Shown here one piece after another: positions 15,488-30,454 of a DNA stretch of 32,106 bases. The position numbers were made by a program, and so were the translations under genes. The stretch is taken from the IMG/VR virus record IMGVR_UViG_3300032322_002004. One strand, 5' to 3'. Numbering within the stretch: position 1 is the stretch's first letter; each line of letters starts with the position of its first letter. This stretch comes from an uncultured virus (IMG/VR IMGVR_UViG_3300032322_002004). Lineage: Duplodnaviria > Heunggongvirae > Uroviricota > Caudoviricetes. The notes below the pieces were generated by a model, which did not search any database, was not told where the DNA came from, and saw only the letters and a list, made by a program, of their open reading frames with translations.

Positions 15488-17512
15488 ATGTCATTATCGT
15501 TTCGCTTAGCAGACGACTTCGTAAGCTCATACAAGGAAAAGAAAGTACCTTGGGGGTATGCGGATGCGGCCGGAAATTCGGTTGGGGAGATCACTTTCCT
15601 TCGAACTTATTCCAGGTTAAAAGCTGACGGAACCAAGGAGACATGGGTTGACGTATGCGAGCGTGTTATCAACGGTATGTATTCCATTCAAAAGGATCAC
15701 GCTAAAGCCCAACGACTACCATGGTCGGATGCCAAAGCTCAGGCTTCAGCTAAAGAAGCCTTTGACCGTTTGTTCAATCTAAAGTGGACCCCACCGGGTC
15801 GCGGACTTTGGGTTATGGGTACCCCACTCGTCAATGAGCAGAAGAACTCAGCGGCATTACAGAACTGTTCATTCGTATCAACATCTTCAATGACGAAGCT
15901 TGATCCGGCAAAACCATTCGCCTTCCTCATGGAAGCCTCCATGCTTGGCGTGGGAGTTGGCTTTGATGATAAGGGCGCAGATAAGGACTTTACAATTTAT
16001 GCACCGGAACCAGACACAGCACCAATCGTCATCCCAGATACCCGTGAAGGCTGGGTTGAATCAGCCGCCCTCGTCATCAACAGCTTCCTTAAGCCAGATC
16101 AGAAGAGCCCAGTATTCGACTACACACAAATCCGGCCAGCCGGTACTCCGATTAAAACCTTTGGCGGAACAGCCGCGGGTCACGAACCATTAGAGAAGCT
16201 ACACAATTACATCAGATCTATTTTCAAAGGACGTGCCGGTGAGAAACTTACTCGTAAAGACATCGCGGATATTGGCAATCTTATTGGAGTGTGCGTTGTA
16301 TCTGGCAATGTCCGCCGGAGTGCTGAGCTTCTTATGGGTCGTCTCGATGATAAAGACTTCCTAAACCTAAAGAACGCAGAGGTATACCCAGAGCGTAACT
16401 CGTATGATCCAAAAAACCCAGGATGGGCCTGGATGAGCAACAACAGCGTCGAAGTTTGTGTTGGCGATGATCTTAGCCACATTAAAGAAGCTATTGCACT
16501 CAACGGTGAGCCAGGTGTTATTTGGATGGACGTTACACGTAAGTATGGCCGTCTAATTGATCCAATCAACAACAAGGACCACAGAGCCGCTGGATACAAT
16601 CCATGCGCTGAGCAATCACTTGAAAGCTTTGAGTGCTGTACCTTGGTAGAAACATATCTCAATCGCCATGACTCATTTGAAGACTTCAAGCGCACATTAA
16701 AGTTTGCGTATTTATATGCCAAGACTGTAACACTCCTTCCTACACACTGGGAAGAAACCAATGCGATCATGCAACGCAATCGCCGTATCGGAACTTCAAT
16801 GTCCGGTGTAGCTAACTTTGCAGATCGTGTAGGTATGCCAACACTTCGTGAATGGATGGATGCAGGGTACTCAGCTATCCAGCAATACGACAAGACCTAT
16901 TCTGAATGGCTTGGTATTCGTGAGTCAATCAAGACTACAACTGTAAAGCCATCCGGAACCGTATCGATCTTAGCCGGTGAATCACCTGGAGTACACTGGA
17001 CTCCGGGCGGAGAATACTTTATGAGAGCTATTCGTTTTGCTAACGATGATCCAATGCTTCCTTTGTTTAAAGCATCCGGTTACGTTGTAGAGCCAGCTAG
17101 TGAGTCACCTAAGACTACAAGCGTAGTGTTCTTCCCAATCAAGTCACAAGCTTTGCGATCAGAGAAGGACGTATCTATTTACGAAAAGACTTCTCTCGCC
17201 GCTACAGCTCAGCGTTACTGGTCTGATAACTCAGTCTCAGTAACTATCTCTTTCGATGCAGAGAAAGAAAAGGATGCGGTTGGTACTGTGTTACATATGT
17301 TCGATGGCCAGCTAAAGACTGTCTCTTTCTTGCCAATGGGTAACGCTGTGTATCCTCAAATGCCATACACGCAGACAACTAAAGAAGTCTACGATGAATA
17401 CACATTAAAGCTATTGCCTATTGACTTTACTGACGTGTACGCCGGCATGGCCGCGGATGCAATCGGTGAGAAGTATTGCAGTACTGACTTCTGTGAAGTA
17501 CCAAAACCATAG
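15488..17512 (+). CDS. nrdJ: Class II (B12-dependent) ribonucleotide reductase, monomeric RTPR type
   Basis: TFLRTYSR, PPGRGLW, LQNC, GVGVGF, NPCAEQ, RRIG, TTVKPSGTVS, C-terminal CSTDFC. Confidence 0.95.
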   Translation: MSLSFRLADDFVSSYKEKKVPWGYADAAGNSVGEITFLRTYSRLKADGTKETWVDVCERVINGMYSIQKDHAKAQRLPWSDAKAQASAKEAFDRLFNLKWTPPGRGLWVMGTPLVNEQKNSAALQNCSFVSTSSMTKLDPAKPFAFLMEASMLGVGVGFDDKGADKDFTIYAPEPDTAPIVIPDTREGWVESAALVINSFLKPDQKSPVFDYTQIRPAGTPIKTFGGTAAGHEPLEKLHNYIRSIFKGRAGEKLTRKDIADIGNLIGVCVVSGNVRRSAELLMGRLDDKDFLNLKNAEVYPERNSYDPKNPGWAWMSNNSVEVCVGDDLSHIKEAIALNGEPGVIWMDVTRKYGRLIDPINNKDHRAAGYNPCAEQSLESFECCTLVETYLNRHDSFEDFKRTLKFAYLYAKTVTLLPTHWEETNAIMQRNRRIGTSMSGVANFADRVGMPTLREWMDAGYSAIQQYDKTYSEWLGIRESIKTTTVKPSGTVSILAGESPGVHWTPGGEYFMRAIRFANDDPMLPLFKASGYVVEPASESPKTTSVVFFPIKSQALRSEKDVSIYEKTSLAATAQRYWSDNSVSVTISFDAEKEKDAVGTVLHMFDGQLKTVSFLPMGNAVYPQMPYTQTTKEVYDEYTLKLLPIDFTDVYAGMAADAIGEKYCSTDFCEVPKP

Positions 17513-17520
17513 TTAAAATT

Positions 17521-17552
17521 AAAAGCCCCCTGTGAGAAGCAGGGGGCTTTTT
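17521..17552. terminator. Bidirectional intrinsic terminator between convergent blocks
   Basis: AAAAGCCCCCTG-loop-CAGGGGGCTTTTT. Confidence 0.9.
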
Positions 17553-17650
17553 CTATTTGAGAGCAGGTATAGCTACGGCTGATAGGGGCCGATCATGACT
17601 ATCCTTGGCGTAAGAAAGGTTAGGACCGCTTTGACTCTCTCATAGCTCAG

Positions 17651-17815
17651 TTAATCTTGGTAAAAACCAAAGCGCTCTTCATCAAGCGCATGTTTATCGT
17701 AATCTCCGTCAAACTCTTCTTCTTCGATCTCAAAGTCATCTTCATCTTCATCAATATCTTCTCGACGGATGCTAGGGCTAATCGGTTCAATTAGCGGATC
17801 AGGCAGAATATCCAT
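17651..17815 (-). CDS. Very acidic small protein
   Basis: Not in ORF track. MDILPDPL...EDIDEDEDDFEIEEEEFDGDYD...; AAGGAG RBS; TAATG coupling. Confidence 0.65.
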   Translation of the reverse strand: MDILPDPLIEPISPSIRREDIDEDEDDFEIEEEEFDGDYDKHALDEERFGFYQD

Positions 17816-18099
17816 TAAGCCTCTCCTTTATATGCAAAAGAACCCTTGAATGATACCGGCTTACCCTTCTCATCAAGCTTCTCTCCAGCTTCCAGCTTTA
17901 CGCTCTTGCGTGGTGTGTGTTCGGCGGCCATCGCTTTCAGCCATCTCTTTCCAGCTGACGCGTTAGCCCATGCTTTGAACTGACCTTTCGGTGCGCTCTC
18001 TTGGTCGTCACGTATTACATAGTGACCGATCCATGCTCCACCCTTTTCGGTGTTCTTTGTTAGATCAGCACTAAAAGTATAATTAATCTTCTTTGCCAT
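17815..18099 (-). CDS. Basic hypothetical protein
   Basis: 94 aa, coupled. Confidence 0.75.
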   Translation of the reverse strand: MAKKINYTFSADLTKNTEKGGAWIGHYVIRDDQESAPKGQFKAWANASAGKRWLKAMAAEHTPRKSVKLEAGEKLDEKGKPVSFKGSFAYKGEA

Positions 18100-18100
18100 A

Positions 18101-18280
18101 TTAGCTCTCTTCTATTGTTGTGTACTCAATTAGTGAGCTACCAAAGTCATCATGAATCCAGCCTTGGATCATAGTCTTGGCATACTCTTCGTCAAAACTA
18201 TCCTCGGGATAGTCTCTTCTAAGTTCAGATAGTACCTCATCTGTGTCATAAGTGACAGTTGCGGTTGCGGTTATTTTCAT
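18101..18280 (-). CDS. Small acidic hypothetical protein
   Basis: Not in ORF track. MKITATATVTYDTDEV...IEES; TAATG coupling. Confidence 0.65.
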   Translation of the reverse strand: MKITATATVTYDTDEVLSELRRDYPEDSFDEEYAKTMIQGWIHDDFGSSLIEYTTIEES

Positions 18281-18492
18281 TAGAAGTCTCCGTTCATTAC
18301 ATCAATTGATCTCATTAATTGTTCGCATACCTCTCGGTCGGCGCGGTTGATCTCTTCCGATATATCGGACTCGACCCAGCTATCTCCGGTCCAAACTGTG
18401 CCTTCGGGGAATCTTGCCTCTTCCGAGGCAATATCCCACATCCAGCCCATACCGGATACGTACTTAACTATGAAGTGGTGCTCAGTTCTCAT
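18280..18492 (-). CDS. Hypothetical protein
   Basis: Coupled ORF. Confidence 0.7.
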   Translation of the reverse strand: MRTEHHFIVKYVSGMGWMWDIASEEARFPEGTVWTGDSWVESDISEEINRADREVCEQLMRSIDVMNGDF

Positions 18493-18839
18493 TAGCCTAG
18501 GTCATCCCTATCTATTAGATACTCGATGAAGTGATCTTCTCGGTCATATACAGTCGTAGGGTAGTTCTCTTCAACAAAACTCTCAAACTTATCTCTTACT
18601 ACAAGATCAAAGAATTGATAAGAATTGCACCCACCTACGCCTTCATTACTTACTTGGCCTATCAATACGTCATCAAAGTGAATGGCGGCCTTCCACGCAA
18701 CTCCGCGGTTGTGCTCAAACATCGTGAGTTTAGATACCCGATACAGCTGGGCACTCTCGATATCTTTAGGCACAAGGGATGCGCTCCATTGTGCGGCAAA
18801 CTCGGCATAATCTTGCTGAATGCTAGTCATCTCGGTCAT
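18492..18839 (-). CDS. Hypothetical protein
   Basis: Start MTEMTS coupled to upstream stop; VSNEGVGG motif. Confidence 0.7.
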   Translation of the reverse strand: MTEMTSIQQDYAEFAAQWSASLVPKDIESAQLYRVSKLTMFEHNRGVAWKAAIHFDDVLIGQVSNEGVGGCNSYQFFDLVVRDKFESFVEENYPTTVYDREDHFIEYLIDRDDLG

Positions 18840-19426
18840 TAGATACGCTCCCCACTTAGATAGTCGACTACTTGCATAGCCTCTTTCATAGCATCGTCCG
18901 CTTCTTCCCATCCACCCACGGAGTCCTGAAAATTTTCCGTGGTGTGATTACAAGCTTCACACTTCTCCTCCTTGGTAATGCGGTAGGTATATGACTCGCC
19001 ACGAAGATACTTATCGTAGGACTTAACCTCACCACGCAATAGGGCTTCGGCTTGATCTAAGTCCTTGATACCTTCACGAACCATGTCGCCATCGGTGCAG
19101 AATATGAACCCGACTTGACCACTATCCCAACCCGCGTGTTCGACAATTCCGCGGTAACTCCCTACCTTCATAGAGAGTCCTGAATGGTCATAGAGATATA
19201 GGGGAAGGATGACCATGCCACCCAACTCGGACTCGATATAGTCACGGACTTCCGACCATGAGCCTAAGTCCTGATTATCGATCTTGAATGAGTCACCTAG
19301 GGCATATCTGCCGTGCATACATACCATAGTGCCGAAGTTATCCCACTCGCGGGGATTCTGTGGATCAGTGTCATAGTCAATTGCAATTGTGTAGCCCTTA
19401 TATAGGGTCAATTCGGCGGTAGTCAT
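18839..19426 (-). CDS. Conserved phage/mobile-element hypothetical protein
   Basis: NPREWDNFGTMVC.H..Y, PLYLYDHSG, WDSGQVGFI, YDKYLRGE. Confidence 0.8.
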   Translation of the reverse strand: MTTAELTLYKGYTIAIDYDTDPQNPREWDNFGTMVCMHGRYALGDSFKIDNQDLGSWSEVRDYIESELGGMVILPLYLYDHSGLSMKVGSYRGIVEHAGWDSGQVGFIFCTDGDMVREGIKDLDQAEALLRGEVKSYDKYLRGESYTYRITKEEKCEACNHTTENFQDSVGGWEEADDAMKEAMQVVDYLSGERI

Positions 19427-19602
19427 TACGCCACCTTCACTTCTGCATAGATACCATAGATAGCGTATTCCTTGATCATACGCTTGGTAGATGCTGGAGT
19501 TAATTCTGCATATACAAGTACTTCATTAGTCTCGGTATCGATTATGCAGGTTGGTACTTTCTTACGTGAATTGAGCTTAGGTAGCTCGATCTCCTTTATC
19601 AT
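19426..19602 (-). CDS. Small hypothetical protein
   Basis: Not in ORF track. MIKEIELPKL...YAEVKVA; TAATG coupling. Confidence 0.55.
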   Translation of the reverse strand: MIKEIELPKLNSRKKVPTCIIDTETNEVLVYAELTPASTKRMIKEYAIYGIYAEVKVA

Positions 19603-19617
19603 CGGTATATCTTCTAT

Positions 19618-19686
19618 CTGTAAGCTGAATTCGCGGTAATCGTATATCGATTACTGGATAGGCATATAGATACCTATGGCTTACAG
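19618..19686 (-). promoter_or_regulatory. Three-way-junction 5' leader
   Basis: CTGTAAGC/GCTTACAG outer stem enclosing two hairpins (19636-19654, 19658-19677). Confidence 0.5.
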
Positions 19687-19734
19687 GGCAGACATTACCC
19701 TCCGACAACCCATATTCCTAGTATTTAGGATATT

Positions 19735-19805
19735 TAGCTCTCTCGGCGTGTCGGAGCTCTCTTAGCTCTCTCTCTTAGCTCTCTCTCTTATCAGATAGCT
19801 CTCTT
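19735..19805. repeat. Iterated AGCTCTCT tandem repeats
   Basis: Five AGCTCTCT units around a CGGCGTGTCG box at 19744-19753. Confidence 0.7.
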
Positions 19806-19974
19806 GGCCATAGGGCAGTAAATCTGGCCATATCCGCAGTGTCGCTTTGTCGACATTTGGCAGTAGCCGGAATCGATAAGTAGCTTTGTCGACAATTGCT
19901 ACTTGGCCGGTAGCTCTTCGGCTACCACGGCCGGATCGGCTGTGTCAAGCAACTTAAGCTGTGATTCGCATCAC

Positions 19975-20026
19975 CTCTCTCTTACTTACTTATTCCCTTT
20001 AATGGGGAGGGTGGGCCAACACAAAC
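19975..20026. repeat. Inter-cassette structured element, copy 1
   Basis: CTCTCT...TTCCC...TGG GGAGGGTGGG CCA ACACAAAC. Confidence 0.85.
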
Positions 20027-20078
20027 TTTTCGCTGCAAAAACGACTCAAAGAGTCCTCTCGGCAGCGAAAGCTGTGAG

Positions 20079-20119
20079 CTCGCACCCAACCAGCGTGATA
20101 GGCCGCTGGCCGGGGCGAG
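20079..20119 (-). terminator. Terminator-like hairpin
   Basis: Long GC stem, loop TGATAGGC on + strand, just after the stop at 20129. Confidence 0.65.
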
Positions 20120-20128
20120 AAGATCAGC

Positions 20129-20434
20129 TTATATGTAACGTTTCCATTCAGTCAATACTTCCAGGATCAGCTCCAGGCATTCACCATCGGTGGCCTCTTC
20201 GCCTCCCATGGCTATAATTTGCTGGACCAGGTCCAGGGCATCCGCGTCGTGGCCGTCCTGGCCATCTTTTAGCGTGTTTACATAGCTATCGACCAGGTCA
20301 TCGATTTCTGAGCGCTTCCGCGGACAGTCTGGATAAGCTTTTGGCGCATCTTCACAGCTACAAAACCCGAACTTCTCGACTTGGGTTGCGTGTGTGAGCT
20401 CGGCGAGCTCGCTCCAGGTCATTGATTCGCTCAT
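20129..20434 (-). CDS. Hypothetical protein
   Basis: Coupled ORF; CSCED...YPDC. Confidence 0.7.
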   Translation of the reverse strand: MSESMTWSELAELTHATQVEKFGFCSCEDAPKAYPDCPRKRSEIDDLVDSYVNTLKDGQDGHDADALDLVQQIIAMGGEEATDGECLELILEVLTEWKRYI

Positions 20435-20685
20435 GCCTGGACCCCCGATCTGCGATCAAACTCCCTGGCGGCCTCCGCTAGGGTCTTGCAGTAGGTACCC
20501 TGGGAGCACATGCCCTCAAAGTCTGAGTACCACACCACATATGGATCGACTGGGTGATCGCGGAAAGCTAGGACCACAGCTTGCCCATCACGGATCACAG
20601 CTGAGGCTATACACAAAGCCCCATTTTGAAGGCGGGAGCCACGTAGCTCCTTTAATAAGTGATCACGAACTACTTCTAGTGTCAT
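20431..20685 (-). CDS. Hypothetical protein
   Basis: MTLEVVRDH..., AGGAG RBS, ATGA overlap. Confidence 0.7.
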   Translation of the reverse strand: MTLEVVRDHLLKELRGSRLQNGALCIASAVIRDGQAVVLAFRDHPVDPYVVWYSDFEGMCSQGTYCKTLAEAAREFDRRSGVQA

Positions 20686-21011
20686 TCGTCTACTCCTGAC
20701 TCGATTAGGTTCACAGCATAGGCCCACAGCGGGCTAGAAGACAAGACCTCACGGCGAGCGCCGTCATACCAATCTTGGTAGACATACCAAACAGCATCTA
20801 CTTCACCGAACGAATGTTCGATTTCAATGCGATCAGCTGGGCCGCCAGTGCTAAGAATGACTCTTGTCAGCTTGCGGTGATCAATACCTAGAGCTGGATC
20901 GTCAAAGTAGTCATCATGGTTAGGGTTCTCCATGAGCTCTTTAAACTGGAGCTCTCTCTCTTTCATCTCTCCCGCGATTCTCTCTTCGCAGGTTCTCTCT
21001 TTTGTTGACAT
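20682..21011 (-). CDS. Hypothetical phage protein (LSTGGP...YQDW type)
   Basis: GAGGA RBS; first gene of cassette. Confidence 0.75.
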   Translation of the reverse strand: MSTKERTCEERIAGEMKERELQFKELMENPNHDDYFDDPALGIDHRKLTRVILSTGGPADRIEIEHSFGEVDAVWYVYQDWYDGARREVLSSSPLWAYAVNLIESGVDE

Positions 21012-21135
21012 TTGTTCCTCTCTTCGCCCTATCTGAGCTAGGAGAAAACTACAGCTACAGCTACAGCTAGCCAGGCATTTAACTCGGCGTGTCGCAACTA
21101 TTTTTACACAGCTCTCCAGCGTGTCGGCTTGACAT

Positions 21136-21190
21136 CTCTCTCCGTTTACCCTATCCCGAAGGGATAAGGGGAGGGTGGGTCAACACAAAC
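21136..21190. repeat. Inter-cassette structured element, copy 2
   Basis: CTCTCT...TATCCC GAA GGGATA..GG GGAGGGTGGG TC AACACAAAC. Confidence 0.85.
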
Positions 21191-21217
21191 ATTTGGATGG
21201 GTGTAGGCAAAAACCAT

Positions 21218-21258
21218 AAAAAAAGAAACCGGCGCGGGGTGATAGGCCCCCGCACCGG
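21218..21258 (-). terminator. Intrinsic terminator
   Basis: GC stem with loop TGATAGGC; A-tract on + strand gives a U-tract on -. Confidence 0.8.
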
Positions 21259-21268
21259 CTGAAGCTAG

Positions 21269-21406
21269 CTACTTACTAGCTTCTAATCTTTTCTCGATTA
21301 GGATCAGATTCCAGTAAATCATGCACCACTGGCATTCACACAGATCCCCTTCGGGGTGGATGTTCCTATCAATCCACTCCAGGGCCTCCTGGATAGTCGC
21401 GCTCAC
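21269..21406 (-). CDS. Small hypothetical protein
   Basis: Not in ORF track. GTG start, H...CECQWC, GTGA overlap. Confidence 0.5.
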   Translation of the reverse strand: MSATIQEALEWIDRNIHPEGDLCECQWCMIYWNLILIEKRLEASK

Positions 21407-21573
21407 ATTGAACTCACTTCCATATAGTGGAACACATTGGAATCACAGAATTCGACCTTGTCATCAGTGTCCTCTTCATTGAAGTAAGCATCGTAGAGGG
21501 CCTCAGCCTCCTCCTCATCCCTGGCTTGGATGAAGAGTTGCTGAGTCACAATATTGGCTATAAACGTTGGCAT
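21403..21573 (-). CDS. Small acidic hypothetical protein
   Basis: MPTFIANIV...; TAATG coupling. Confidence 0.65.
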   Translation of the reverse strand: MPTFIANIVTQQLFIQARDEEEAEALYDAYFNEEDTDDKVEFCDSNVFHYMEVSSM

Positions 21574-22109
21574 TAGTCGACCTTTCCACAGCGACGGCAT
21601 TCTTGGCGGTAAACGTGCTTGCAGTGAATACCAAGGTTGTTGTTAAAGACTTCAGAGATGTCTTCCCCAAAGATGTCGTAGACGACGTTGTCGTCACCAC
21701 CTTCAAACTGTATACCGTCTTTCTTCCAGTACTCGACAACGCCACGCTCGCCGACAAACTGTGTCCATTGGTAGTTGGAGCCTTCAAATCTAAAGTGGAA
21801 ATCATTTTGAACCTCCAATACTTTTTGGGTAGCGCTCTCAATTTCGATCCCAGCAAGAAGAGGAATCTCTCTTATTGGTTCATTCATTAAACGAGGAGCG
21901 ATGCGAACGACGGCTAGGTCATCTGCAACCTCAACGCACTCAGGGTTATTCTTGGTATCGATAGTGCATGCTTCAACGAACCATTCACTCTCTTCTCTCA
22001 ACCAATTAGCAGCATCGACATAACTTCCAAAATCCTCATTGGTATAAGTCGTTGCGCTCTCTACTTCATTACCTTCTACGTCGGTGACGTAATACTTAAC
22101 TTTGTACAT
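21573..22109 (-). CDS. Acidic hypothetical protein
   Basis: GATAGGAG RBS; C-terminal CKH...CRRC. Confidence 0.75.
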   Translation of the reverse strand: MYKVKYYVTDVEGNEVESATTYTNEDFGSYVDAANWLREESEWFVEACTIDTKNNPECVEVADDLAVVRIAPRLMNEPIREIPLLAGIEIESATQKVLEVQNDFHFRFEGSNYQWTQFVGERGVVEYWKKDGIQFEGGDDNVVYDIFGEDISEVFNNNLGIHCKHVYRQECRRCGKVD

Positions 22110-22208
22110 TTCGATCTCCTATCAGGGATGTGGAATTTCCACTTGCACAAGGTATCGAATCCCGGACAAAAGTGTGGGACCTCGGCCGGTCGGCGTGTCG
22201 CGCCTCAT

Positions 22209-22267
22209 CTCTCTTTTATTTATTAACCCTTTAGGGTTGAATGGGTGGGTGGGCATTCAACACAAAC
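22209..22267. repeat. Inter-cassette structured element, copy 3
   Basis: CTCTCT...AACCCT TT AGGGTT GAATG GGTGGGTGGG CATTC AACACAAAC. Confidence 0.85.
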
Positions 22268-22319
22268 AATTTGGCGCTTCGCACAGCTCTTTGCTGCGGG
22301 CGCCAGCTGTAGGATCATG

Positions 22320-22354
22320 AAAAAGAAAAAGCCCCCCAGCCGTAGCTGGGGAGC
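22320..22354 (-). terminator. Intrinsic terminator
   Basis: CCCCAGC CGTA GCTGGGG with an A-tract on + strand. Confidence 0.85.
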
Positions 22355-22369
22355 CTTCCCTTGGTTTAT

Positions 22370-22849
22370 CTACTCGATAGGAGAGATAAGGTCTTGGGCG
22401 GTTTCATCCAAGGTGGCCTTCACCTTTGGGTGGAGTTCATTCCGCATGTTGGCGAATGCTGGGGCTGGCCAGCCAGCCTTGTACACTCGGTCTAGCAGGT
22501 TTGCTAGGGAGTAATCGGGTGTTAATTTCTTGCACTCGATAAGTGATAAGAATGCGCTAGGGGTATCGCCATTCTCGTAATGGTAAGCCGAAAGAATGGC
22601 GTACCAAGGGGTGCGGTGCTTCTCTTCCACTAGGGGAATGATAGTTTCAGCGAAACGGATACTATCCTTTACAGATAGTTCTAGGGGCAGACCGAGTAAG
22701 TAATCTCGGACTTGTATATCGGCAGAAACTACTTCTGCCATATCAGCGACGAGTTCAGGTGAGAACTCTTGTGAGTCTTGGAAAGAATTGACGAGTGCGT
22801 TAATCGCCTCGACGCCCCTTCCAACTGTAAGGTTTTCCTTAACAGTCAT
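22370..22849 (-). CDS. DUF4192-like helical protein
   Basis: VRDYLLG...ENGD..SA..SL...PDYSLANLL.RVY.AGWP resembles the actinobacterial DUF4192 C-terminus. Confidence 0.65.
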   Translation of the reverse strand: MTVKENLTVGRGVEAINALVNSFQDSQEFSPELVADMAEVVSADIQVRDYLLGLPLELSVKDSIRFAETIIPLVEEKHRTPWYAILSAYHYENGDTPSAFLSLIECKKLTPDYSLANLLDRVYKAGWPAPAFANMRNELHPKVKATLDETAQDLISPIE

Positions 22850-22895
22850 TTGTATCTCCTATCAGAATAACTAGGCGGTGTTGCCTAGTGAGAGA

Positions 22896-22949
22896 ACTGT
22901 ATAACGGCTCACCGACAATTCCCTGCATTTGCCTATCCTCGGCGTGTCG
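22896..22949 (-). promoter_or_regulatory. Cassette promoter: CGACACGCCG...AAATGC...TTGTCGGT-N9-TACAGT
   Basis: Same architecture and spacing as 24089-24142. Confidence 0.7.
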
Positions 22950-22970
22950 CACTTCCCAGCTCACCGGCAT

Positions 22971-23026
22971 CTCTCTTACTTACTTATCCCTCTGGAAGAG
23001 ATAGGGGTGGGAGGGCCAACACAAAC
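22971..23026. repeat. Inter-cassette structured element, copy 4
   Basis: CTCTCTTACTTACTTATCCC...GG GGTGGGAGGG CC AACACAAAC. Confidence 0.85.
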
Positions 23027-23050
23027 AATGCGAGCGCTGCCGGACATGCG

Positions 23051-23079
23051 AAACGCCCCCACCGATCTCGGCAGGGGCG
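23051..23079 (-). terminator. Terminator-like hairpin
   Basis: CGCCCC...GGGGCG stem with a short U-tract on -. Confidence 0.65.
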
Positions 23080-23092
23080 CTCGCTGGACGAA

Positions 23093-23593
23093 TTACCAAC
23101 TGGCTTGATACACGAACTCACCATCTGGGAAACGCTCTAATGCTTCCGCAATAATCTCTGCGGTTTGGAGCAGGTCAGCGTAGTAATACTGGTCTTTCTC
23201 TGTGCCGCCGAAGAAGAAACCAGCAACTGGTCTTAGTGGGTCTGATGTGTCCTCAAACTGTTTCTCTAATAGAGCCAGCGTGGTTTCCATCTTCATTTGA
23301 TTTGCCAGCCACTCACCAATGTTTTCTCCATCAACTGGAACTGACTTTGATGACTTAGGGCTTTCGGTCTCTTCCAATGGAGCTGGGTCTTGGCTGCGCT
23401 TTACTAGAGCCGTGAGGCATAGAGCCTGTAACTCCATCAACTTGATCTTGGATACTGGTATTTCTTGGCACTCATCTACTCCATCAGCCAACTCACGAAC
23501 AAACCAACCATGAATAGCATTTGCCTTACGCCAGTAACCTACTTCTTGCGTTCCTTCTGATGTTCTTACTCCTAGATACATGTCTAGTCCCAT
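23093..23593 (-). CDS. Conserved phage hypothetical protein (MGLDMYL...YWRKAN...YQASW)
   Basis: Recognisable terminal motifs; GATAGGAG RBS. Confidence 0.8.
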   Translation of the reverse strand: MGLDMYLGVRTSEGTQEVGYWRKANAIHGWFVRELADGVDECQEIPVSKIKLMELQALCLTALVKRSQDPAPLEETESPKSSKSVPVDGENIGEWLANQMKMETTLALLEKQFEDTSDPLRPVAGFFFGGTEKDQYYYADLLQTAEIIAEALERFPDGEFVYQASW

Positions 23594-23619
23594 TTTTTTC
23601 TCCTATCTTGTTGGGTGGT

Positions 23620-23646
23620 GAGCAGTTTAACCACATACTCAGGTGG
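23620..23646 (-). ncRNA. H-type pseudoknot motif, second copy
   Basis: On -: CCAC CTGAGTAT GTGG TTAAACTGCTC; the stem covaries with the 7935-7963 copy. Confidence 0.5.
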
Positions 23647-23656
23647 ATAGTGGGAT

Positions 23657-24046
23657 TTAGAGATACTTTGAGATGTCTTTCATTGTTGAGGCATTGACGA
23701 ACTCCTCGTCGGTCATCTTTAAGATGTTGAGGGCATTTTGGATTTCCTCTAACTGCCAATGACCTAATGTGCTTTCATGCTCACGCTTTGGCTCATCAGG
23801 TAGAACTGTGCCCTCAGCAATTTCATACTCAACTGTAAGAGTTCTGTTCCATGTTCTGAGGTTAAGTGAATTAACCTTCACGCTATCTTTGAGTTCTTTT
23901 ACAAGGCTGGCGTTGTATTTATCCATAGCCTTTTGATAGTTCTCCTCATTGACCTTATTGCGTTTTTCTCTTTCTTGGTTATCAGTAATTTTGTTCTCTA
24001 GTGCCGCAATAACTTTGGCTACTGGAACTTTTACTCTAACTGCCAT
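23657..24046 (-). CDS. Hypothetical protein
   Basis: GATAGGAG RBS; first gene of cassette. Confidence 0.8.
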   Translation of the reverse strand: MAVRVKVPVAKVIAALENKITDNQEREKRNKVNEENYQKAMDKYNASLVKELKDSVKVNSLNLRTWNRTLTVEYEIAEGTVLPDEPKREHESTLGHWQLEEIQNALNILKMTDEEFVNASTMKDISKYL

Positions 24047-24088
24047 TTGTTTCTCCTATCAGAGTCTGCCCGTGTTGGCATTGGCTCA

Positions 24089-24142
24089 ATAATAGGCGAA
24101 CCCACCGACAACCACCGGCATTTGATGATTACCGGCGTGTCG
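24089..24142 (-). promoter_or_regulatory. Cassette promoter: CGACACGCCG...AAATGC...TTGTCGGT-N9-TATTAT
   Basis: Repeated architecture. Confidence 0.7.
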
Positions 24143-24145
24143 CAA

Positions 24146-24205
24146 CTCTCTTTTCCCTATTCCCTTTAGGGATAGAGCAGGGTGGGTGGGCTGCTCAACA
24201 CAAAC
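24146..24205. repeat. Inter-cassette structured element, copy 5
   Basis: CTCTCT...TCCCT TT AGGGA TA GAGCAG GGTGGGTGGG CTGCTC AACACAAAC. Confidence 0.85.
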
Positions 24206-24237
24206 ATTTTGCGATCCGCGCTCGCGCTCGCCAGGTA

Positions 24238-24278
24238 AACAAATCGAGCTCCCGATCCGCGGGGGACCGAGAGCTCGA
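24238..24278 (-). terminator. Terminator-like hairpin
   Basis: TCGAGCTC...GAGCTCGA followed by TTTGTTT on -. Confidence 0.7.
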
Positions 24279-24299
24279 CTGTCTCCTGATAGGGGAAGC

Positions 24300-25193
24300 T
24301 TATGCGATAACCTCTTCTGAGATCTTGGCGCTTTCTTCTTTACGGTTGATCCCTTGGATGTAATCAGCTGCTCGCTGCGCCTTGCCGCTAGCTGCGATGA
24401 TCAGTGACGGATCATTCTTTAAAGCTTTCAACCATCCGGCGATGTAGCTCGCAGAATTCTGCATGTCGACCTTGATCCCGGCCGAGCTTAGGAGCATCTG
24501 GGCGCCGATATCTGCGACGAGCTCTTCTCGTGCGTAGTTAGCATCTCCAAATCGTGCCGGCTTATCATCCTCGCTAAATCGGTCTAGGCGTGATTGATGT
24601 CCGGTTGAATGAATCATCTCATGGCATAGAGTGTAAGCGTGACTCTCTGCATCGTCGAATGTCTCCAACGGTGGCAACGTGATCGAATCGGCCAACGTGT
24701 CATAGAATGCGCGACCTTGCGCCTTGTAATAAATCTCCGGCTTGCTGGTATACCCGGCCACGATTGAATTTAAAGCTGGCAAGGTTGCAACCGGTTCGCG
24801 CTTGATGTCATAAATGGCCGGGATGGTAATCCCCTCGCATTGTTCAACGTTGAACACGCTATAGAATTTCATAAATGCACCCTTAGAGACGGGCTTGCCA
24901 TCCTCGCCTTGCTTAATGATGCGTGACCAATACACGACGGGCAGACTCTTCTCACCCTTGCGGACGTTACCGCCTAGGGCTTGCGCTTGCTTATAGGTAA
25001 CCCATAGTGAGCGCTCATATTGTGCGCCACATATTGCTAGCACTAGGGCATTGATACCCGAATATTCTTTATTGCTGGTTAAGCTCATTGGCATATATCC
25101 GCTTGAATTCCATGGTTTATGCCATGGCGCGATACCATTCTCCAATTGTTCAATTACTAGGGCGTTGATTCGCTCCACTAATTCCTTGTTCAT
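24300..25193 (-). CDS. ardC: ArdC-like antirestriction protein (ssDNA-binding domain plus zincin-like domain)
   Basis: LENGIAPWHKPW, YSGINAL, WVTYKQA...GGNVRKGEK, VFNVEQ, HEMIHSTGH..RL.R, YAREELVA, SASYIAGWL. Start at ATG 25193 after GATAGGGG. Confidence 0.9.
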   Translation of the reverse strand: MNKELVERINALVIEQLENGIAPWHKPWNSSGYMPMSLTSNKEYSGINALVLAICGAQYERSLWVTYKQAQALGGNVRKGEKSLPVVYWSRIIKQGEDGKPVSKGAFMKFYSVFNVEQCEGITIPAIYDIKREPVATLPALNSIVAGYTSKPEIYYKAQGRAFYDTLADSITLPPLETFDDAESHAYTLCHEMIHSTGHQSRLDRFSEDDKPARFGDANYAREELVADIGAQMLLSSAGIKVDMQNSASYIAGWLKALKNDPSLIIAASGKAQRAADYIQGINRKEESAKISEEVIA

Positions 25194-25230
25194 TCTATCC
25201 CCTATCGTTACGCCTTGTTGCGTAGGTAGA

Positions 25231-25297
25231 AAATTACCGCATATGAATTGATTCACCAACACGACACGCCGCTCATATATAACGATTTGATAACAAT
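25231..25297 (-). promoter_or_regulatory. ardC promoter (TTGGTG-N17-TAATTT) with GACAC box and MtrA-like direct repeat
   Basis: CGACACGCCG at 25262-25271; ATAACGAT-ttg-ATAACAAT at 25279-25297. Confidence 0.65.
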
Positions 25298-25361
25298 CTC
25301 TCTCACAACAACTCCCTTACGAAGTAAGTCAGAGACAGGGTGGGCGGGTCTCAACACAAAC
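25298..25361. repeat. Inter-cassette structured element, copy 6
   Basis: CTCTCT...CCCTTAC GAA GTAAG...GAGAC AGGGTGGGCGG GTCTC AACACAAAC. Confidence 0.85.
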
Positions 25362-25375
25362 ATTTTTGGCAAGCG

Positions 25376-25408
25376 AAACGCCCGCCCCCGGGGAAGTGGG
25401 AGCGGGCG
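25376..25408 (-). terminator. Terminator-like hairpin
   Basis: CGCCCGC...GCGGGCG stem. Confidence 0.65.
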
Positions 25409-25422
25409 CTGATCCAGCTTTT

Positions 25423-25698
25423 TTATTCTGCCTTGGCGATACCTTCTAAGTAAGTCACCGCGTCATATATGGCGTCGGTATCTGATACCTCGGGTAGTAA
25501 TCGCCATAGAGCATTTGCTAAGGCTTGTGGTGTTTCGTATTTCATCTTGTGCTTCCCCATATCTGTTTCGTATGTTTCACACTCTGAGCAGGTCTCGGAG
25601 CGGTATTCCCTTTCATCATATTCATTGTCGCACCTATCGCATTTGACCCATATTGAGTCATCATAGAAGGCGGGGTCTGCCATTGGTGGATAACTCAT
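25423..25698 (-). CDS. Zn-finger-containing hypothetical protein
   Basis: CDRC...CSEC. Confidence 0.7.
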   Translation of the reverse strand: MSYPPMADPAFYDDSIWVKCDRCDNEYDEREYRSETCSECETYETDMGKHKMKYETPQALANALWRLLPEVSDTDAIYDAVTYLEGIAKAE

Positions 25699-25892
25699 TT
25701 CATCAACCCCTCATCTATGAAATCGCCACAAGGATATTCAATGGCTACTGGTGGAAGGTAAGTAGTCCAACGCTCACCCTCGGCGGTATTCAATCTAACT
25801 CTGAATGACCCTGTGCGATTTGGAACAATCTCCATAATCTGACCAACAACGCCACTCTTATGAGTTGTGTATGTCTGACCTATCTCAATCAC
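25695..25892 (-). CDS. Small SH3-like beta protein
   Basis: IGQTYTT.KSGVVG.I.EI...RVRL...RWTT; GTG start with GATAGGGG RBS. Confidence 0.65.
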   Translation of the reverse strand: MIEIGQTYTTHKSGVVGQIMEIVPNRTGSFRVRLNTAEGERWTTYLPPVAIEYPCGDFIDEGLMK

Positions 25893-25934
25893 TTGCTTCC
25901 CCTATCTATCAAACCAATTTGATTTGATGACTTA

Positions 25935-26012
25935 ATAATAGACACGCTCACCGACAATACTCAAAACGACACGCCGTAGTTATATAACAATTTGATAACG
26001 AAGTTATCCACA
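25935..26012 (-). promoter_or_regulatory. Cassette promoter (TTGTCGGT-N9-TATTAT) with GACAC box, MtrA-like repeat and DnaA box
   Basis: CGACACGCCG 25967-25976; ATAACAAT-ttg-ATAACGAA 25984-26002; TTATCCACA 26004-26012. Confidence 0.65.
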
Positions 26013-26013
26013 A

Positions 26014-26068
26014 CTCTCTTATATATATATTCCCTTGAAAAGAATGGGGTGGGAGGGCCAACACAAAC
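26014..26068. repeat. Inter-cassette structured element, copy 7
   Basis: CTCTCT...TTCCC TT GAA AAGAA TGG GGTGGGAGGG CCA ACACAAAC. Confidence 0.85.
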
Positions 26069-26093
26069 ATTCTCGGCGCGGCCGGGCAAGGCG

Positions 26094-26117
26094 AAACCCC
26101 CGGCTGATCACCGGGGG
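26094..26117 (-). terminator. Terminator-like hairpin
   Basis: CCCCCGG-loop-CCGGGGG followed by TTT on -. Confidence 0.7.
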
Positions 26118-26137
26118 CTCCGTTCTTAGTTAGGGGA

Positions 26138-26287
26138 CTAAGCTTTGACCTTTTCTATGTATCGACTGATCTCGTAGTAAGCGCGGGCACATCTGTGGCA
26201 GAACTTCTCTGTCACTCCGATTCCATACATAAGGGCGTCTACCCCTGAATAGACAACCTCATCGCTTTCGCAGATTAAGCATTTCAC
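26138..26287 (-). CDS. Small Zn-finger protein
   Basis: Not in ORF track. (M)KCLICES...FCHRCA...; GGAGG RBS. Confidence 0.65.
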   Translation of the reverse strand: MKCLICESDEVVYSGVDALMYGIGVTEKFCHRCARAYYEISRYIEKVKA

Positions 26288-26439
26288 TTGGCAACCTCCA
26301 GTGCTAGATACTCGACGCAGATTCTGATTGCGTCATCTGGTCCTGTGCAGTTGTCAATCTCTGACTCAAATCGAGCCGTGGTCTCTGAGTCGTTGCGGAA
26401 CTTCTCATAAACCTTTGCCATAAATAATCTTGGGTCCAT
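26284..26439 (-). CDS. Small hypothetical protein
   Basis: Not in ORF track. MDPRLFMAKV...LEVAK; GTGA overlap. Confidence 0.6.
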   Translation of the reverse strand: MDPRLFMAKVYEKFRNDSETTARFESEIDNCTGPDDAIRICVEYLALEVAK

Positions 26440-26441
26440 CT

Positions 26442-26597
26442 TTATTCCCTTTCCCATTTGATTAGGTCACAAGAGCGACCATCGACTGTTTGCTTGCAGT
26501 TTCCATATACTGGATTGTAGAAGGCGTGGAGCACCAATACTCCGAGGAGTAGGAGCGCCCCGAGGAGCGCCCCTACCTTGTCGAGAGTGTTAAGCAC
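26442..26597 (-). CDS. Small membrane protein
   Basis: VGALLGALLLLGVLVLHAFY hydrophobic helix; GTG start overlapping the upstream stop. Confidence 0.6.
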   Translation of the reverse strand: MLNTLDKVGALLGALLLLGVLVLHAFYNPVYGNCKQTVDGRSCDLIKWERE

Positions 26598-26952
26598 TGA
26601 CCGCGACCTTGGTGCGTCGGGTGTAGGTATCGATACCGAGTTGGTATAGATGGTTGACGAACTTCGTCTTGGTGTAGCGGTTGGCATTGGTGTGCAGACC
26701 GATACGGCGTTGGATGTCGGCTGGTGTGTAGAAGTAATCGCTACCAGCGATGTCGCTTGTGTAAACGAGAGCGCCGTTGGCACCCTCGAGCATCTTGATG
26801 CGAGTGTAGAACTCGCCAGCGTTGGCGTCGGTAATTTCGTTCATACCGATAACCATAGTTGCGAAGACAAGGCCCTGAGTCTTGACAGACTCGGTGCCGC
26901 TGTTGATTTCACTGAAGTCTATGACTCGAGTGATATCCCACGTAAGTGGCAT
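26590..26952 (-). CDS. Hypothetical protein
   Basis: MPLTWDITRV...IGMNEIT..N..EFY.R...RRIGL.TNA; TTAGGGGA RBS. Confidence 0.75.
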   Translation of the reverse strand: MPLTWDITRVIDFSEINSGTESVKTQGLVFATMVIGMNEITDANAGEFYTRIKMLEGANGALVYTSDIAGSDYFYTPADIQRRIGLHTNANRYTKTKFVNHLYQLGIDTYTRRTKVAVSA

Positions 26953-27020
26953 TTTATCCCCTAACGGACAGTGCCAGCGGTGTTGCTGACAAGACATATA
27001 AAACACTATCCGTTGAGCGT

Positions 27021-27065
27021 AGTCAATGCGACACGCCGTGCGCTTCATAACAATTTGATAACAAT
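27021..27065 (-). promoter_or_regulatory. Cassette promoter region with TTGACT, GACAC box and MtrA-like repeat
   Basis: CGACACGCCG 27029-27038; ATAACAAT-ttg-ATAACAAT 27047-27065. Confidence 0.65.
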
Positions 27066-27171
27066 ACCCCCCTAGGGGTTAAATGTCGACAATTTTGAGA
27101 TAGCCACCAGGGAACCCGAACAGGTGATGCTGAATTTGCTAGGCAGTAGCCCAGTTTGCTAGGGTGCGGGA

Positions 27172-27573
27172 ATGGACAACGACAAAAAAACACGTGAAGA
27201 AATGTTAAATGAAGTACTAGCTCAGATTGAACGTAGATTTAAAACTTCTACTAAAACTGAAGTCCCAGATAAGCCGAGAGAAGTGCCGGTGCAATTGAGG
27301 TTCAAAAGATGCCCTGCTATTACCAGAGCAGGCAATCCATGCCCAATTGGCGGTGAAGATGAACGTGGCGGTTACTGTCATGTCCATGATCCGGAAGGTA
27401 CCTACCAGAAACAACAAAAGAACAAAAAGCCAGTTCAACTAAAGCCTGCAACCTTTGGTACCAAAGAAGACCGGATCCGTGTGCAGGTGGCGCGGGAAGC
27501 TATTGAATACCTACGTAAAAACCCAAATTGTCATCCAGAAGAGCTCATAGATCTAATTTTAGGAAATTGGTAG
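27172..27573 (+). CDS. Protein with C-x8-C...C-x2-H Zn finger
   Basis: RCPAITRAGNPC...YCHVH; probably leaderless (TAGGGT 6 nt upstream). Confidence 0.7.
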   Translation: MDNDKKTREEMLNEVLAQIERRFKTSTKTEVPDKPREVPVQLRFKRCPAITRAGNPCPIGGEDERGGYCHVHDPEGTYQKQQKNKKPVQLKPATFGTKEDRIRVQVAREAIEYLRKNPNCHPEELIDLILGNW

Positions 27574-29287: not shown

Positions 29288-30454
29288 ATGCCACTCCCAC
29301 TAATACCAATAGCTATTGCTGCTGCTGGAACTGTTGCACGTGCCGCCGCCGGTGCTGCTGCAAAAGAAGTTGTTAAGAAAGCTGCACCTGTTGTTGCTAA
29401 AGAAGTTGTTAAAAAAGCTGACGACGTTGCTGCAAAAGTACTTCCACGTACTGCTGAGTTTGTAACTGGTAAAACATCATCATGGGATGATGCTTTTGCT
29501 GCTGCTAAAGCTGCACCTGCAAAACCTGCACCTGCGCCAGTAAAACCTGCACCATCAACACCTAAAGTTGATCCACTAAAGCCAGGAACACCTGCGCCAA
29601 AAATTGAACCATGGCAAAAGCCTGGGCCACAATTCCCAACTATTACTCTTCCTAAAACTGCACCGGCACCTAAGCCTGCGCCAGCTCCTGCTCCTAAGCC
29701 AGCACCTGCGCCAGCTCCTAAGCCAGCAACGCCTGCGCCAAAGATCACACCAAAACCAGCGCCAGCTCCACAACCTTACACAGCACCACGTCCATCAACT
29801 CCTGCAACAAAACCAGGAGATCTTCCAGGTGCACCGGGTTATCCAAAGGTAACACCTAAACCAGCACCGGCTAAACCAACACCATCTAAGCCTGCGCCAA
29901 AAATTGAACCAAAGACACCACCAAAGATTGAACCAAAAACTCCTGCTAAGCCAGAAACAAAACCAACTGTTCCTGGTAAAGAACCATTCTTTGATCCAAA
30001 GCCAGGTATTAAGCCAGGAGTTAAGCCAACTACAAAGCCAGAAACAAAACCAAGTACTAAGCCAGAGACAAAACCAGAAACAAAGCCAAGTACTAAACCT
30101 TCTACAAAACCTTCTACTAAGCCAGGAACAAAGCGTCCTGTTCGCACTGCGCCTGGACTACCTGGAACAGGTAAGCCTGGTACGGGTAAGCCTGGAAAAA
30201 CTAATCCTAAGACAGATAAGCCAAAGAAAGACAAGGTTAAGCGCGAAGCTCGTAAACCAAAAATTGATATTCCTCCAGTCTTTTTCCCAGAGCTAGAGCC
30301 TTTTGATCCACCAGTTACTCAGCCACAGCCTCAACCACAGCCAGTTCCATTTATTCCTCCTACAATTCTTGAAACAAAGAAAAAAACAGGAGGATTTATC
30401 CCTAAGAAGGGCCCAGAAGCCCCACCTTGGAACGCACCAAGTAGGGTTATCTAA
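29288..30454 (+). CDS. Pro/Lys/Thr-rich repetitive protein with hydrophobic N-terminus
   Basis: MPLPLIPIAIAAAG start; PAPAPK and TKP[ES] repeats. Confidence 0.8.
   Translation: MPLPLIPIAIAAAGTVARAAAGAAAKEVVKKAAPVVAKEVVKKADDVAAKVLPRTAEFVTGKTSSWDDAFAAAKAAPAKPAPAPVKPAPSTPKVDPLKPGTPAPKIEPWQKPGPQFPTITLPKTAPAPKPAPAPAPKPAPAPAPKPATPAPKITPKPAPAPQPYTAPRPSTPATKPGDLPGAPGYPKVTPKPAPAKPTPSKPAPKIEPKTPPKIEPKTPAKPETKPTVPGKEPFFDPKPGIKPGVKPTTKPETKPSTKPETKPETKPSTKPSTKPSTKPGTKRPVRTAPGLPGTGKPGTGKPGKTNPKTDKPKKDKVKREARKPKIDIPPVFFPELEPFDPPVTQPQPQPQPVPFIPPTILETKKKTGGFIPKKGPEAPPWNAPSRVI

Follow-up and report, generated by a model that had tools for sequence, protein, structure and literature searches.

According to the sections of the icaR report drawn on here (PMC3868564), a UCCCCUG motif in the untranslated region at the 3′ end (3′UTR) of the Staphylococcus aureus icaR mRNA pairs with the Shine–Dalgarno (SD) sequence, blocks initiation and creates an RNase III site. 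The excerpted preprint of Gill et al. 2025 (PMC12697547) describes 8-mers resembling the anti-SD (aSD) sequence that pair in vivo with the ribosome-binding site (RBS) of a Bacillus subtilis message from 467 nt downstream and shorten its half-life from 11.2 to 1.7 min; beyond 500 nt they still lower protein by 44%, and they are depleted from natural B. subtilis genes. Here we describe a comparable arrangement in the minus-strand gene cassettes of a 32,106-nt stretch of DNA (hereafter the window) from an uncultured virus of the Caudoviricetes (IMG/VR record IMGVR_UViG_3300032322_002004), where the RBS of a cassette's first gene is, in several cassettes, complementary to a short element, the anti-RBS, at the 3′ end of the same transcript. 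The pattern is a real, conserved sequence design, and the complementarity most likely acts at the RNA level, as an anti-RBS system of the icaR kind reused across the early cassettes of a phage family. It is because of the icaR and B. subtilis precedents that we read the phage elements as built-in anti-RBS tails.

As in the published icaR account, a C-rich anti-SD at the mRNA 3′ end complements the SD region of the same mRNA (here UCCCCUAUC, UCUCCUAUC and CUUCCCC). Unlike icaR, which as described there is one chromosomal gene with a long 3′UTR, the design here recurs in many cassettes throughout a phage family; its RBS is of an extended, phage-specific type, and the element lies at the stop codon or in a terminator loop, has no established specificity for its own cassette and is known from sequence alone. 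With the system of Gill et al., as far as the excerpted text describes it, the phage shares RBS complements of 8–12 nt hundreds of nt downstream, present here as the 9-nt helices of cassettes A, C and E, but those were synthetic insertions of a kind from which natural genes are depleted, whereas here the complements are enriched at the cassette 3′ end. No description of a phage-wide anti-RBS arrangement was found in the literature outside subscription journals.

In type I toxin mRNAs such as hok and aapA, long-range 5′–3′ pairing keeps the full-length mRNA translationally inert, a comparison already drawn in the sequence-only reading that this analysis follows up. The long-range fold-back is shared, as an analogy only: the pairing here involves the SD and not the extreme 5′ end, and activating 3′ processing is not in evidence. 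No toxin family match was seen among the first-gene products (65–297 amino acids (aa)), one of which, ArdC, is an anti-restriction protein, and antisense RNA was not searched for. The phage T7 gene 1.1/1.2 mRNA, in which the 3′ sequence, as long as RNase III has not cleaved it, inhibits the RBS, likewise shows a phage early mRNA 3′ end able to pair with an upstream RBS; unlike that single case with its RNase III sites, no RNase III-type long duplex was seen here. C-rich loops carrying the UCCC motif of S. aureus RNAIII and the Rsa RNAs reportedly target SD sequences, and the 6C RNA of Actinobacteria is a C-rich-loop regulatory RNA. Pyrimidine-rich anti-SD sequences stand in hairpin loops in the phage too, but in mRNA-terminator loops and not in separate small-RNA genes. 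A search of 17000–27500 against Rfam (E ≤ 1) gave four sub-threshold, terminator-like hits, none at the gathering score (best 23.9 bits against 45).

The minus strand from 17.5 to 27.1 kb consists of about eight short cassettes in tandem, named A to H. Each runs in the same order, from a conserved intergenic element through an operator-like motif and a leader with a small hairpin to a stereotyped RBS, then one to seven small genes, a stop codon and a GC-rich hairpin. The presence of ArdC and this layout suggest that the cassettes form the early region of an uncultured lake phage. The sites with which the argument is concerned are as follows.

26957–26965, minus strand: RBS of the first gene of cassette A, GTTAGGGGA (ATG 26950–26952)
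26129–26137, minus strand: cassette A anti-RBS TCCCCTAAC, beginning 1 nt past the last stop (TAG 26138–26140)
26093–26120, minus strand: cassette A terminator hairpin, downstream of the anti-RBS
25895–25906, minus strand: cassette B RBS region GATAGGGGAAGC (GTG 25890–25892), complementary over 7 nt to its own terminator loop and over 12 nt to the ArdC 3′ element
25390–25396, minus strand: CTTCCCC in the 8-nt loop of the cassette B terminator hairpin (25378–25409)
25198–25206, minus strand: ardC (cassette C) RBS GATAGGGGA (ATG 25191–25193)
24300–25193, minus strand: ardC gene (ArdcN 1e-29, MPTase-PolyVal 1e-33)
24282–24299, minus strand: ardC composite anti-RBS GCTTCCCCTATCAGGAGA, directly past the stop (TAA 24300–24302), complementary to its own RBS (9 nt), to the cassette B RBS (12 nt) and to CTGATAGG of cassettes D–F (8–9 nt)
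24052–24060, minus strand: cassette D RBS GATAGGAGA (ATG 24044–24046), a motif repeated identically at the RBS of its second gene (23599–23607)
23000–23005, minus strand: CCTATC after cassette D, inside the conserved intergenic element
22855–22863, minus strand: cassette E RBS GATAGGAGA (ATG 22847–22849)
22376–22384, minus strand: cassette E anti-RBS TCTCCTATC, in the last codons (stop TAG 22370–22372)
22115–22124, minus strand: cassette F RBS TGATAGGAGA (ATG 22107–22109)
21240–21246, minus strand: CCTATCA in the cassette F terminator loop (hairpin 21227–21260), unpaired probability 1.0
21028–21033, minus strand: cassette G GATAGG, 17–22 nt 5′ of ATG 21009–21011 and upstream of the actual SD
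20096–20102, minus strand: CCTATCA in the cassette G terminator loop (hairpin 20079–20119)
19610–19618, minus strand: cassette H RBS variant GATAGAAGA (ATG 19600–19602)
17581–17588, minus strand: cassette H 3′ element CCCCTATC, 63 nt past the last stop (TAA 17651–17653), preceding a bidirectional terminator (17521–17551) and matching its own RBS by 5 nt only

Six RBS/3′-end pairs had been listed in the sequence-only reading, and all six are exact reverse complements, position by position. For all eight cassettes, we compared the RBS window (−20 to −3) with the region from 18 nt before the last stop through the next intergenic element and found longest Watson–Crick runs of 9, 7, 9, 5, 9, 7, 6 and 5 nt for A to H, a sum of 57. 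Five of the eight carry a 7–9 nt anti-SD complement at their own mRNA 3′ end, the 9-nt complements of A, C and E spanning about 480–900 nt. Dinucleotide shuffles gave sums of 40.6 ± 2.5 with a maximum of 50, random early-region windows gave 40.0 ± 3.0, and under either null 0 of 2000 draws reached the observed sum. Taken singly, the cassettes had P values of 0.005 (A), 0.07 (B), 0.003 (C), 0.58 (D), 0.004 (E), 0.02 (F), 0.40 (G) and 0.85 (H).

The RBS of the first genes is specialized, an extended (U)GAUAGGRGA. A GATAGG-type RBS was found at all eight first genes and upstream of none of the 26 plus-strand open reading frames (ORFs), the replication genes on that strand among them. Its counterpart, found in many cassettes, is CCUAUC with UCCCC/UCUCC or A extensions, either no more than about 12 nt from the last stop or in the loop of the terminator. 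Across the minus strand of the window CCTATC occurs seven times, always within 17586–24293; five occurrences are at cassette 3′ ends, with a sixth in the intergenic element after D and the seventh in the 5′ leader of H. For cassette G, the complement reported earlier is exact, but the GATAGG taken there for the RBS sits at −22 to −17, 5′ of the real SD GAGAGG. For D and H, the matches of only about 5 nt reported earlier hold for the cassettes' own runs, yet CCTATC does lie further downstream, at 23000–23005 and within 17581–17588; between the stop of D (23093–23095) and its terminator (23048–23084), no anti-RBS was found.

The placement of the complements and their display in single-stranded positions were then apparent in a wider set of cassettes. 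Relatives were gathered through ArdC relatives, through an intergenic-element scan (19 stretches in 17 contigs) and by fetching stretches from those contigs. A cassette-calling script required an upstream element, an SD-like motif with a start codon 120–262 nt after that element, an ORF of at least 50 aa and a next element within 4 kb; it called 66 cassettes from 20 sources scanned, of which 58, from 17 of the 20 related sources, were left after removal of eight near-duplicates. Cassettes A and H of the window fail these rules and are excluded from the 58. Within the 58, 8-mers complementary to the own RBS occur at 0.02 per kb in cassette bodies (1 in 43 kb), at 6.9 per kb around the last stop (−15 to +25) and at 0.67 per kb further downstream. 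At the stop 15 were observed against 0.7 ± 1.0 in dinucleotide shuffles (maximum 4 in 200 shuffles), and in the bodies they are, if anything, depleted, with one observed against 4.8 expected (p = 0.075). Five GATAGG phages together have 15 CCTATC sites in sense orientation, and 11 of these are at 3′ ends, offset from the stop by −12 to +7 nt or, in the terminator loop, by +22 to +26 nt, and the 3′-end sites have a mean unpaired probability of 0.83 against 0.35 for all hexamers of the same regions; near-duplicates L001, L002, L109, L111 and L112 were omitted from this accessibility survey and from that of hairpin loops. In the window the motif is exposed in hairpin loops as CCUAUCA (21240–21246 and 20096–20102) and as ACUUCCCC (25390–25396), with an unpaired probability of 1.0. 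The loops are kept while stems change: the cassette B loop ACTTCCCC is identical in the window and L003, although both sides of 4 of the 13 stem pairs differ; CCTATCA in the cassette G loop persists in L003 and L117 across three one-sided stem changes and one deleted pair; and in L004 an unrelated hairpin likewise bears CCTATCA in its loop.

The 3′ motif changes with the type of RBS that a phage uses. The related phages fall into a GATAGGRGA group (window, L001–L004, L102, L103), a GGGGCA/GGGGGCA group (L100, L089, L105, L107, L108) and a GGGGCTG group (L101, L106). When the cognate RBS was compared with the last 170 nt before the next element in the 58 cassettes (the 170-nt test), the longest complement averaged 6.26 nt for cognate against 5.49 nt for non-cognate combinations, and matches of at least 7 nt were found in 36% (21/58) against 14.8%. 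Global permutation of cognate against other-phage RBSs reached the observed value in 0 of 5000 trials, with p = 5e-5 for the stop-proximal version of the test, and the cognate effect persisted when only the 35 non-GATAGG cassettes were considered (p = 0.008 and 0.02). Of the 21 GATAGG cassettes, 10 have CCTATC in the 3′ region, as do 3 of the 37 others (Fisher p = 0.0009); TGCCCC is there in 3 of the 11 GGGGCA cassettes and none of the remaining 47 (Fisher p = 0.005), and sense GATAGG in none of the 21 GATAGG 3′ regions. Counted by lineage, CCTATC 3′ elements are present in 5 of 5 GATAGG lineages and 1 of 10 others (Fisher p = 0.002). Individual RBS/3′ pairs include GGGGCTAA/TTAGCCCC, overlapping the stop, in L105; TTGGGGG/CCCCCAA in L107; GGGGGCAAG/CTTGCCCCC in L089; GGGGCTG/CAGCCCC in L101; and CGATAGGAG/CTCCTATCG in L102.

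Single genes followed across relatives give a similar picture. The ArdC orthologues keep an 8–10-nt helix with differing flanks, their RBSs being GATAGGGGA in the window, TGATAGGGGA in L125/L126, ATCTGATAGG in L130/L131 (match CCTATCAGAT) and TGATAGGG in L103; the composite anti-RBS 3′ of ardC is conserved in L001, L125, L126, L130, L131 and L103. The cassette E anti-RBS TCTCCTATC is unchanged in L003 and L117, and relatives of the cassette E and G proteins yielded a single further close relative (L114/L117), with unchanged elements. A wider ArdC survey covered 46 of 80 metagenome loci, the other 34 having been dropped by eye (truncated, at contig ends or duplicates) with no formal rule. At least 7 nt were complementary in 6 of 46 own pairs against 4.5% of non-cognate pairs (permutation p = 0.002), a signal driven by four family members together with L146 and L167. 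In these two loci, whose ArdC genes lie outside the family at about 38–40% identity, a 7-nt complement of the own RBS follows soon past the stop (TCTGGAG/CTCCAGA at +4 in L167, GGAGAAT/ATTCTCC at +20 in L146). As a family finder in IMG/VR, the pattern CTGATAGGAGA-N4-7-ATG was rejected: its 119 matches are mostly chance, and among 80 of these loci 11 had a one-mismatch intergenic motif, the three inspected not being family members.

On balance, we lean towards the explanation that each finished early mRNA folds back through its anti-RBS tail and throttles its own translation by icaR-like RBS occlusion. The RBS would remain free during transcription of the cassette; after synthesis of the 3′ end, the anti-RBS would pair with the RBS on the same RNA, on read-through RNA begun one cassette upstream or possibly between RNAs, occluding ribosome binding and probably speeding decay. 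Synthesis of early proteins would in that case draw chiefly on nascent messages and would be shut off with no dedicated repressor. A built-in timer on early translation, as the sequence-only reading had proposed, is plausible. That the two sites pair in vivo, that their pairing represses and that it acts in cis is what we infer from these sequences and their folding. We folded modelled transcripts running from 50–55 nt 5′ of the start codon to just beyond the hairpin in RNAfold, with guessed 5′ ends. The predicted minimum free energy (MFE) structure holds the RBS:3′ helix in A (probability 0.99, 9 of 9 pairs), C (mean 0.55) and E (mean 0.74), and in a hypothetical B-to-C read-through RNA the B RBS is paired with the ArdC 3′ element over 12 of 12 pairs. 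For B, F and G, the zero probabilities returned are uninformative since loop-to-RBS pairing is a pseudoknot, outside the scope of RNAfold.

Several observations weigh against the fold-back explanation, among them those on cassette specificity. The earlier claim that each 3′ element follows its own cassette's RBS variant is not established: stop-proximal matches of at least 7 nt were found for 12 of 58 own pairs (20.7%) and for 19.6% of 204 same-phage non-cognate pairs, against 7.7% of 3102 pairs with other-phage RBSs. Within-phage permutation of the stop-proximal test gave p = 0.20 and 0.56; own against same-phage non-cognate was marginal in the 170-nt test (p = 0.046), and in an exhaustive permutation of the eight window cassettes 3.6% of 40320 orders equalled or bettered the cognate one. 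Such matches are rarer at random positions but about equally frequent at non-cognate sites of the same phage, the two comparisons by which the idea was to be judged, and the covariation that homologues were expected to reveal appears at the level of RBS type across phage groups but not as cassette-specific tracking within a phage. The longest match in the window is itself non-cognate, between the B RBS GATAGGGGAAGC (25895–25906) and the ArdC 3′ end GCTTCCCCTATC (24288–24299); this 12-nt complement, also present in L001, suggests read-through transcripts or trans pairing. Set against the previous cassette's RBS, the own RBS was the better match in 10 cases and the worse in 17, with 12 ties (n = 39). 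In the window only A, C, E and F are unusual singly, B being borderline and D, G and H at chance level, and only about a third of the 58 cassettes have a match of at least 7 nt in the 170-nt test (21, with 12 in the stop-proximal one). The ArdC RBS of L003 has changed to GATAGGACT while its 3′ element is TTCCCTATC, an uncompensated change that leaves 6 nt. Counts from related-phage cassettes are not fully independent given their shared ancestry, MFE predictions for long RNAs are unreliable, and loop-type pairings, as pseudoknots, cannot be scored by RNAfold.

The equal matching of own and same-phage RBSs counts in favour of a version acting in trans, in which 3′ hairpins or whole early mRNAs hit the RBSs of all early cassettes and bring about a collective shut-off as RNA accumulates; stable 3′-derived fragments, like small RNAs with C-rich loops, could be the agents. 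The 3′ elements complement the phage's generic early RBS and not their own specifically, that of ArdC matching six of the eight window RBSs by 8–12 nt and seven by at least 7 nt, and motifs are shown in terminator loops as in kissing-loop regulators. We nonetheless consider this version unlikely, if the strongest of the alternatives. Neither a separate promoter nor a processed fragment is known, many of the elements lie in linear form at the stop codon and not in a stable hairpin, and the own RBS beats the next cassette's in 20 cases against 7, with 12 ties (n = 39; 16, 10 ties and 7 without the window and its two closest relatives, n = 33). This asymmetry fits transcripts acting in cis better than free diffusion. 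The same comparison does not favour another candidate, a 3′ element aimed at the next cassette's RBS on read-through RNA.

An improbable alternative is that the complementarity has no function and arises incidentally from 3′ regions rich in C (Rho-loading or the composition of terminators) together with the shared ancestry of duplicated cassette ends. For the G-rich RBS types in particular, GC-rich terminator stems supply complementary C-runs by composition, a point that also counts against fold-back; within-phage specificity is not apparent, and many cassettes lack the element. CCTATC, however, is more than a run of C; its density in 3′ regions is 14 times that in bodies (2.8 against 0.20 per kb), it occurs in at least eight unrelated sequence contexts and is kept in loops while stems change, and the matches exceed those of dinucleotide shuffles.

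Pairing might instead be positive or protective, the joined ends shielding the mRNA from 5′- or 3′-dependent RNases or returning terminating ribosomes to the first RBS, with each terminating ribosome opening the stop-adjacent element. The linear elements do lie at −12 to +7 nt relative to the last stop, a span that a terminating ribosome would cover given its usual footprint. A 5′/3′-UTR interaction in B. subtilis hbs is proposed, in the part of the report used here, to be an RNase shield (PMC5737220). The helix here covers the SD, however, an arrangement that is repressive in the available accounts of icaR (PMC3868564) and of the aSD 8-mers (PMC12697547), and we regard protection as very improbable. 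Least probable of all is a role in DNA, as two-orientation protein sites or recombination points for shuffling: the short inverted repeats do bracket gene cassettes that are reshuffled among relatives (L003 has an extra gene 3′ of ardC and its cassette D split in two), but the 3′ copy lies in RNA-hairpin loops and beside stop codons, which is meaningless in duplex DNA, the 5′ copy keeps SD distance from the start codon, orientation is strict (no sense GATAGG in the 3′ regions) and the motif changes with RBS type in other phage groups.

Upstream of the RBS, the cassettes share further features. Every leader has a short hairpin a few nt 5′ of the RBS (for example 24067–24080 and 22890–22907), its loop often AACAC or AACAA; the hairpin is kept while stems vary across cassettes and relatives, and it is possibly a 5′ stabilizer. 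The leader of cassette G also contains a triple GCTGTA tandem repeat at about 21049–21067 (minus strand). In every cassette an operator-like 9–10-mer, in either orientation, is located downstream of the conserved element and upstream of the RBS, often followed by TTGTCGGTG and a TAnnnT box: CGACACGCC has its 5′ base on the minus strand at 24142, 22949, 22200, 21094 and 19753, and its reverse complement, on the same strand, at 27037, 25975 and 25270. Sister phages have TGTGAC-N6-GTCACA palindromes at this position, and the motif probably belongs to a phage regulator of early promoters.

The intergenic element itself, with seven copies of the core TGTTTGTGTTG in the window, stands downstream of every terminator on the minus strand (26059–26069, 25352–25362, 24196–24206, 23017–23027, 22258–22268, 21181–21191 and 20017–20027) and continues for about 60 nt downstream of each of these cores. 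It is made up of a core, (T/A)GTTTGTGTTG; a C-rich tract, CCCNCCCNCCC; a small, variable hairpin whose end is GGGA(A/T); a stretch rich in AT; and AGAGAG. This pattern was found in 17 IMG/VR contigs, with up to 14 copies per genome of about 96 kb, nearly all in one orientation, and is common to phage groups that differ in RBS type and operators; in L104 (G002) and L113 (G016), TGTTTGTGTTG occurs not in a single orientation but as inverted pairs 62–96 bp apart on both strands. As a sigma-70 promoter the element does not fit, and a scan for such promoters showed no enrichment (9 found against 13.3 expected).

The plus strand of the window carries replication genes for DNA polymerase A (1e-88), RecA (9e-46) and a class II ribonucleotide reductase, the closest polymerases being those of the Streptomyces phages Alone3 and BRock at 39–42% identity. 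A plus-strand ORF at 29288–30454 is packed with Pro/Ala/Lys-rich tandem repeats (PAPKPA-like, in several repeat families) and had no hits in a Pfam search. A megablast search of 19900–27200 against plasmid and phage collections gave zero matches; related DNA is present in lake-water metagenomes from at least 17 studies, with no RNA run among the sequencing runs listed.

More speculatively, and in our estimate doubtfully, this may be a lake-phage family with modular, self-closing early mRNAs, in which a private extended RBS (GAUAGGRGA, or GGGGCA/GGGGCUG) co-evolves with its complement. The complement would be placed either where the ribosome terminating at the last stop covers it or in the loop of the terminator. 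Translation would itself hold the message open; when ribosome traffic ends, the message would close, or the tails of its neighbours would silence it in trans. The outcome would be a protein-free early-to-middle switch whose private RBS spares host and late phage messages.

Natural long-range interactions known to occlude an RBS are few in bacteria, the Discussion of PMC12697547 naming three, and in the portion of that preprint considered here RBS complements are described as selected against in genes, where in these phages they appear to be selected for, in a fixed place and in many cassettes. If the pairing is confirmed, it would mean that phages programme the timing of early, anti-defence expression within the mRNA itself, and it would offer a portable self-limiting expression design together with a searchable signature, an RBS complement at an operon's last stop or in its terminator loop.

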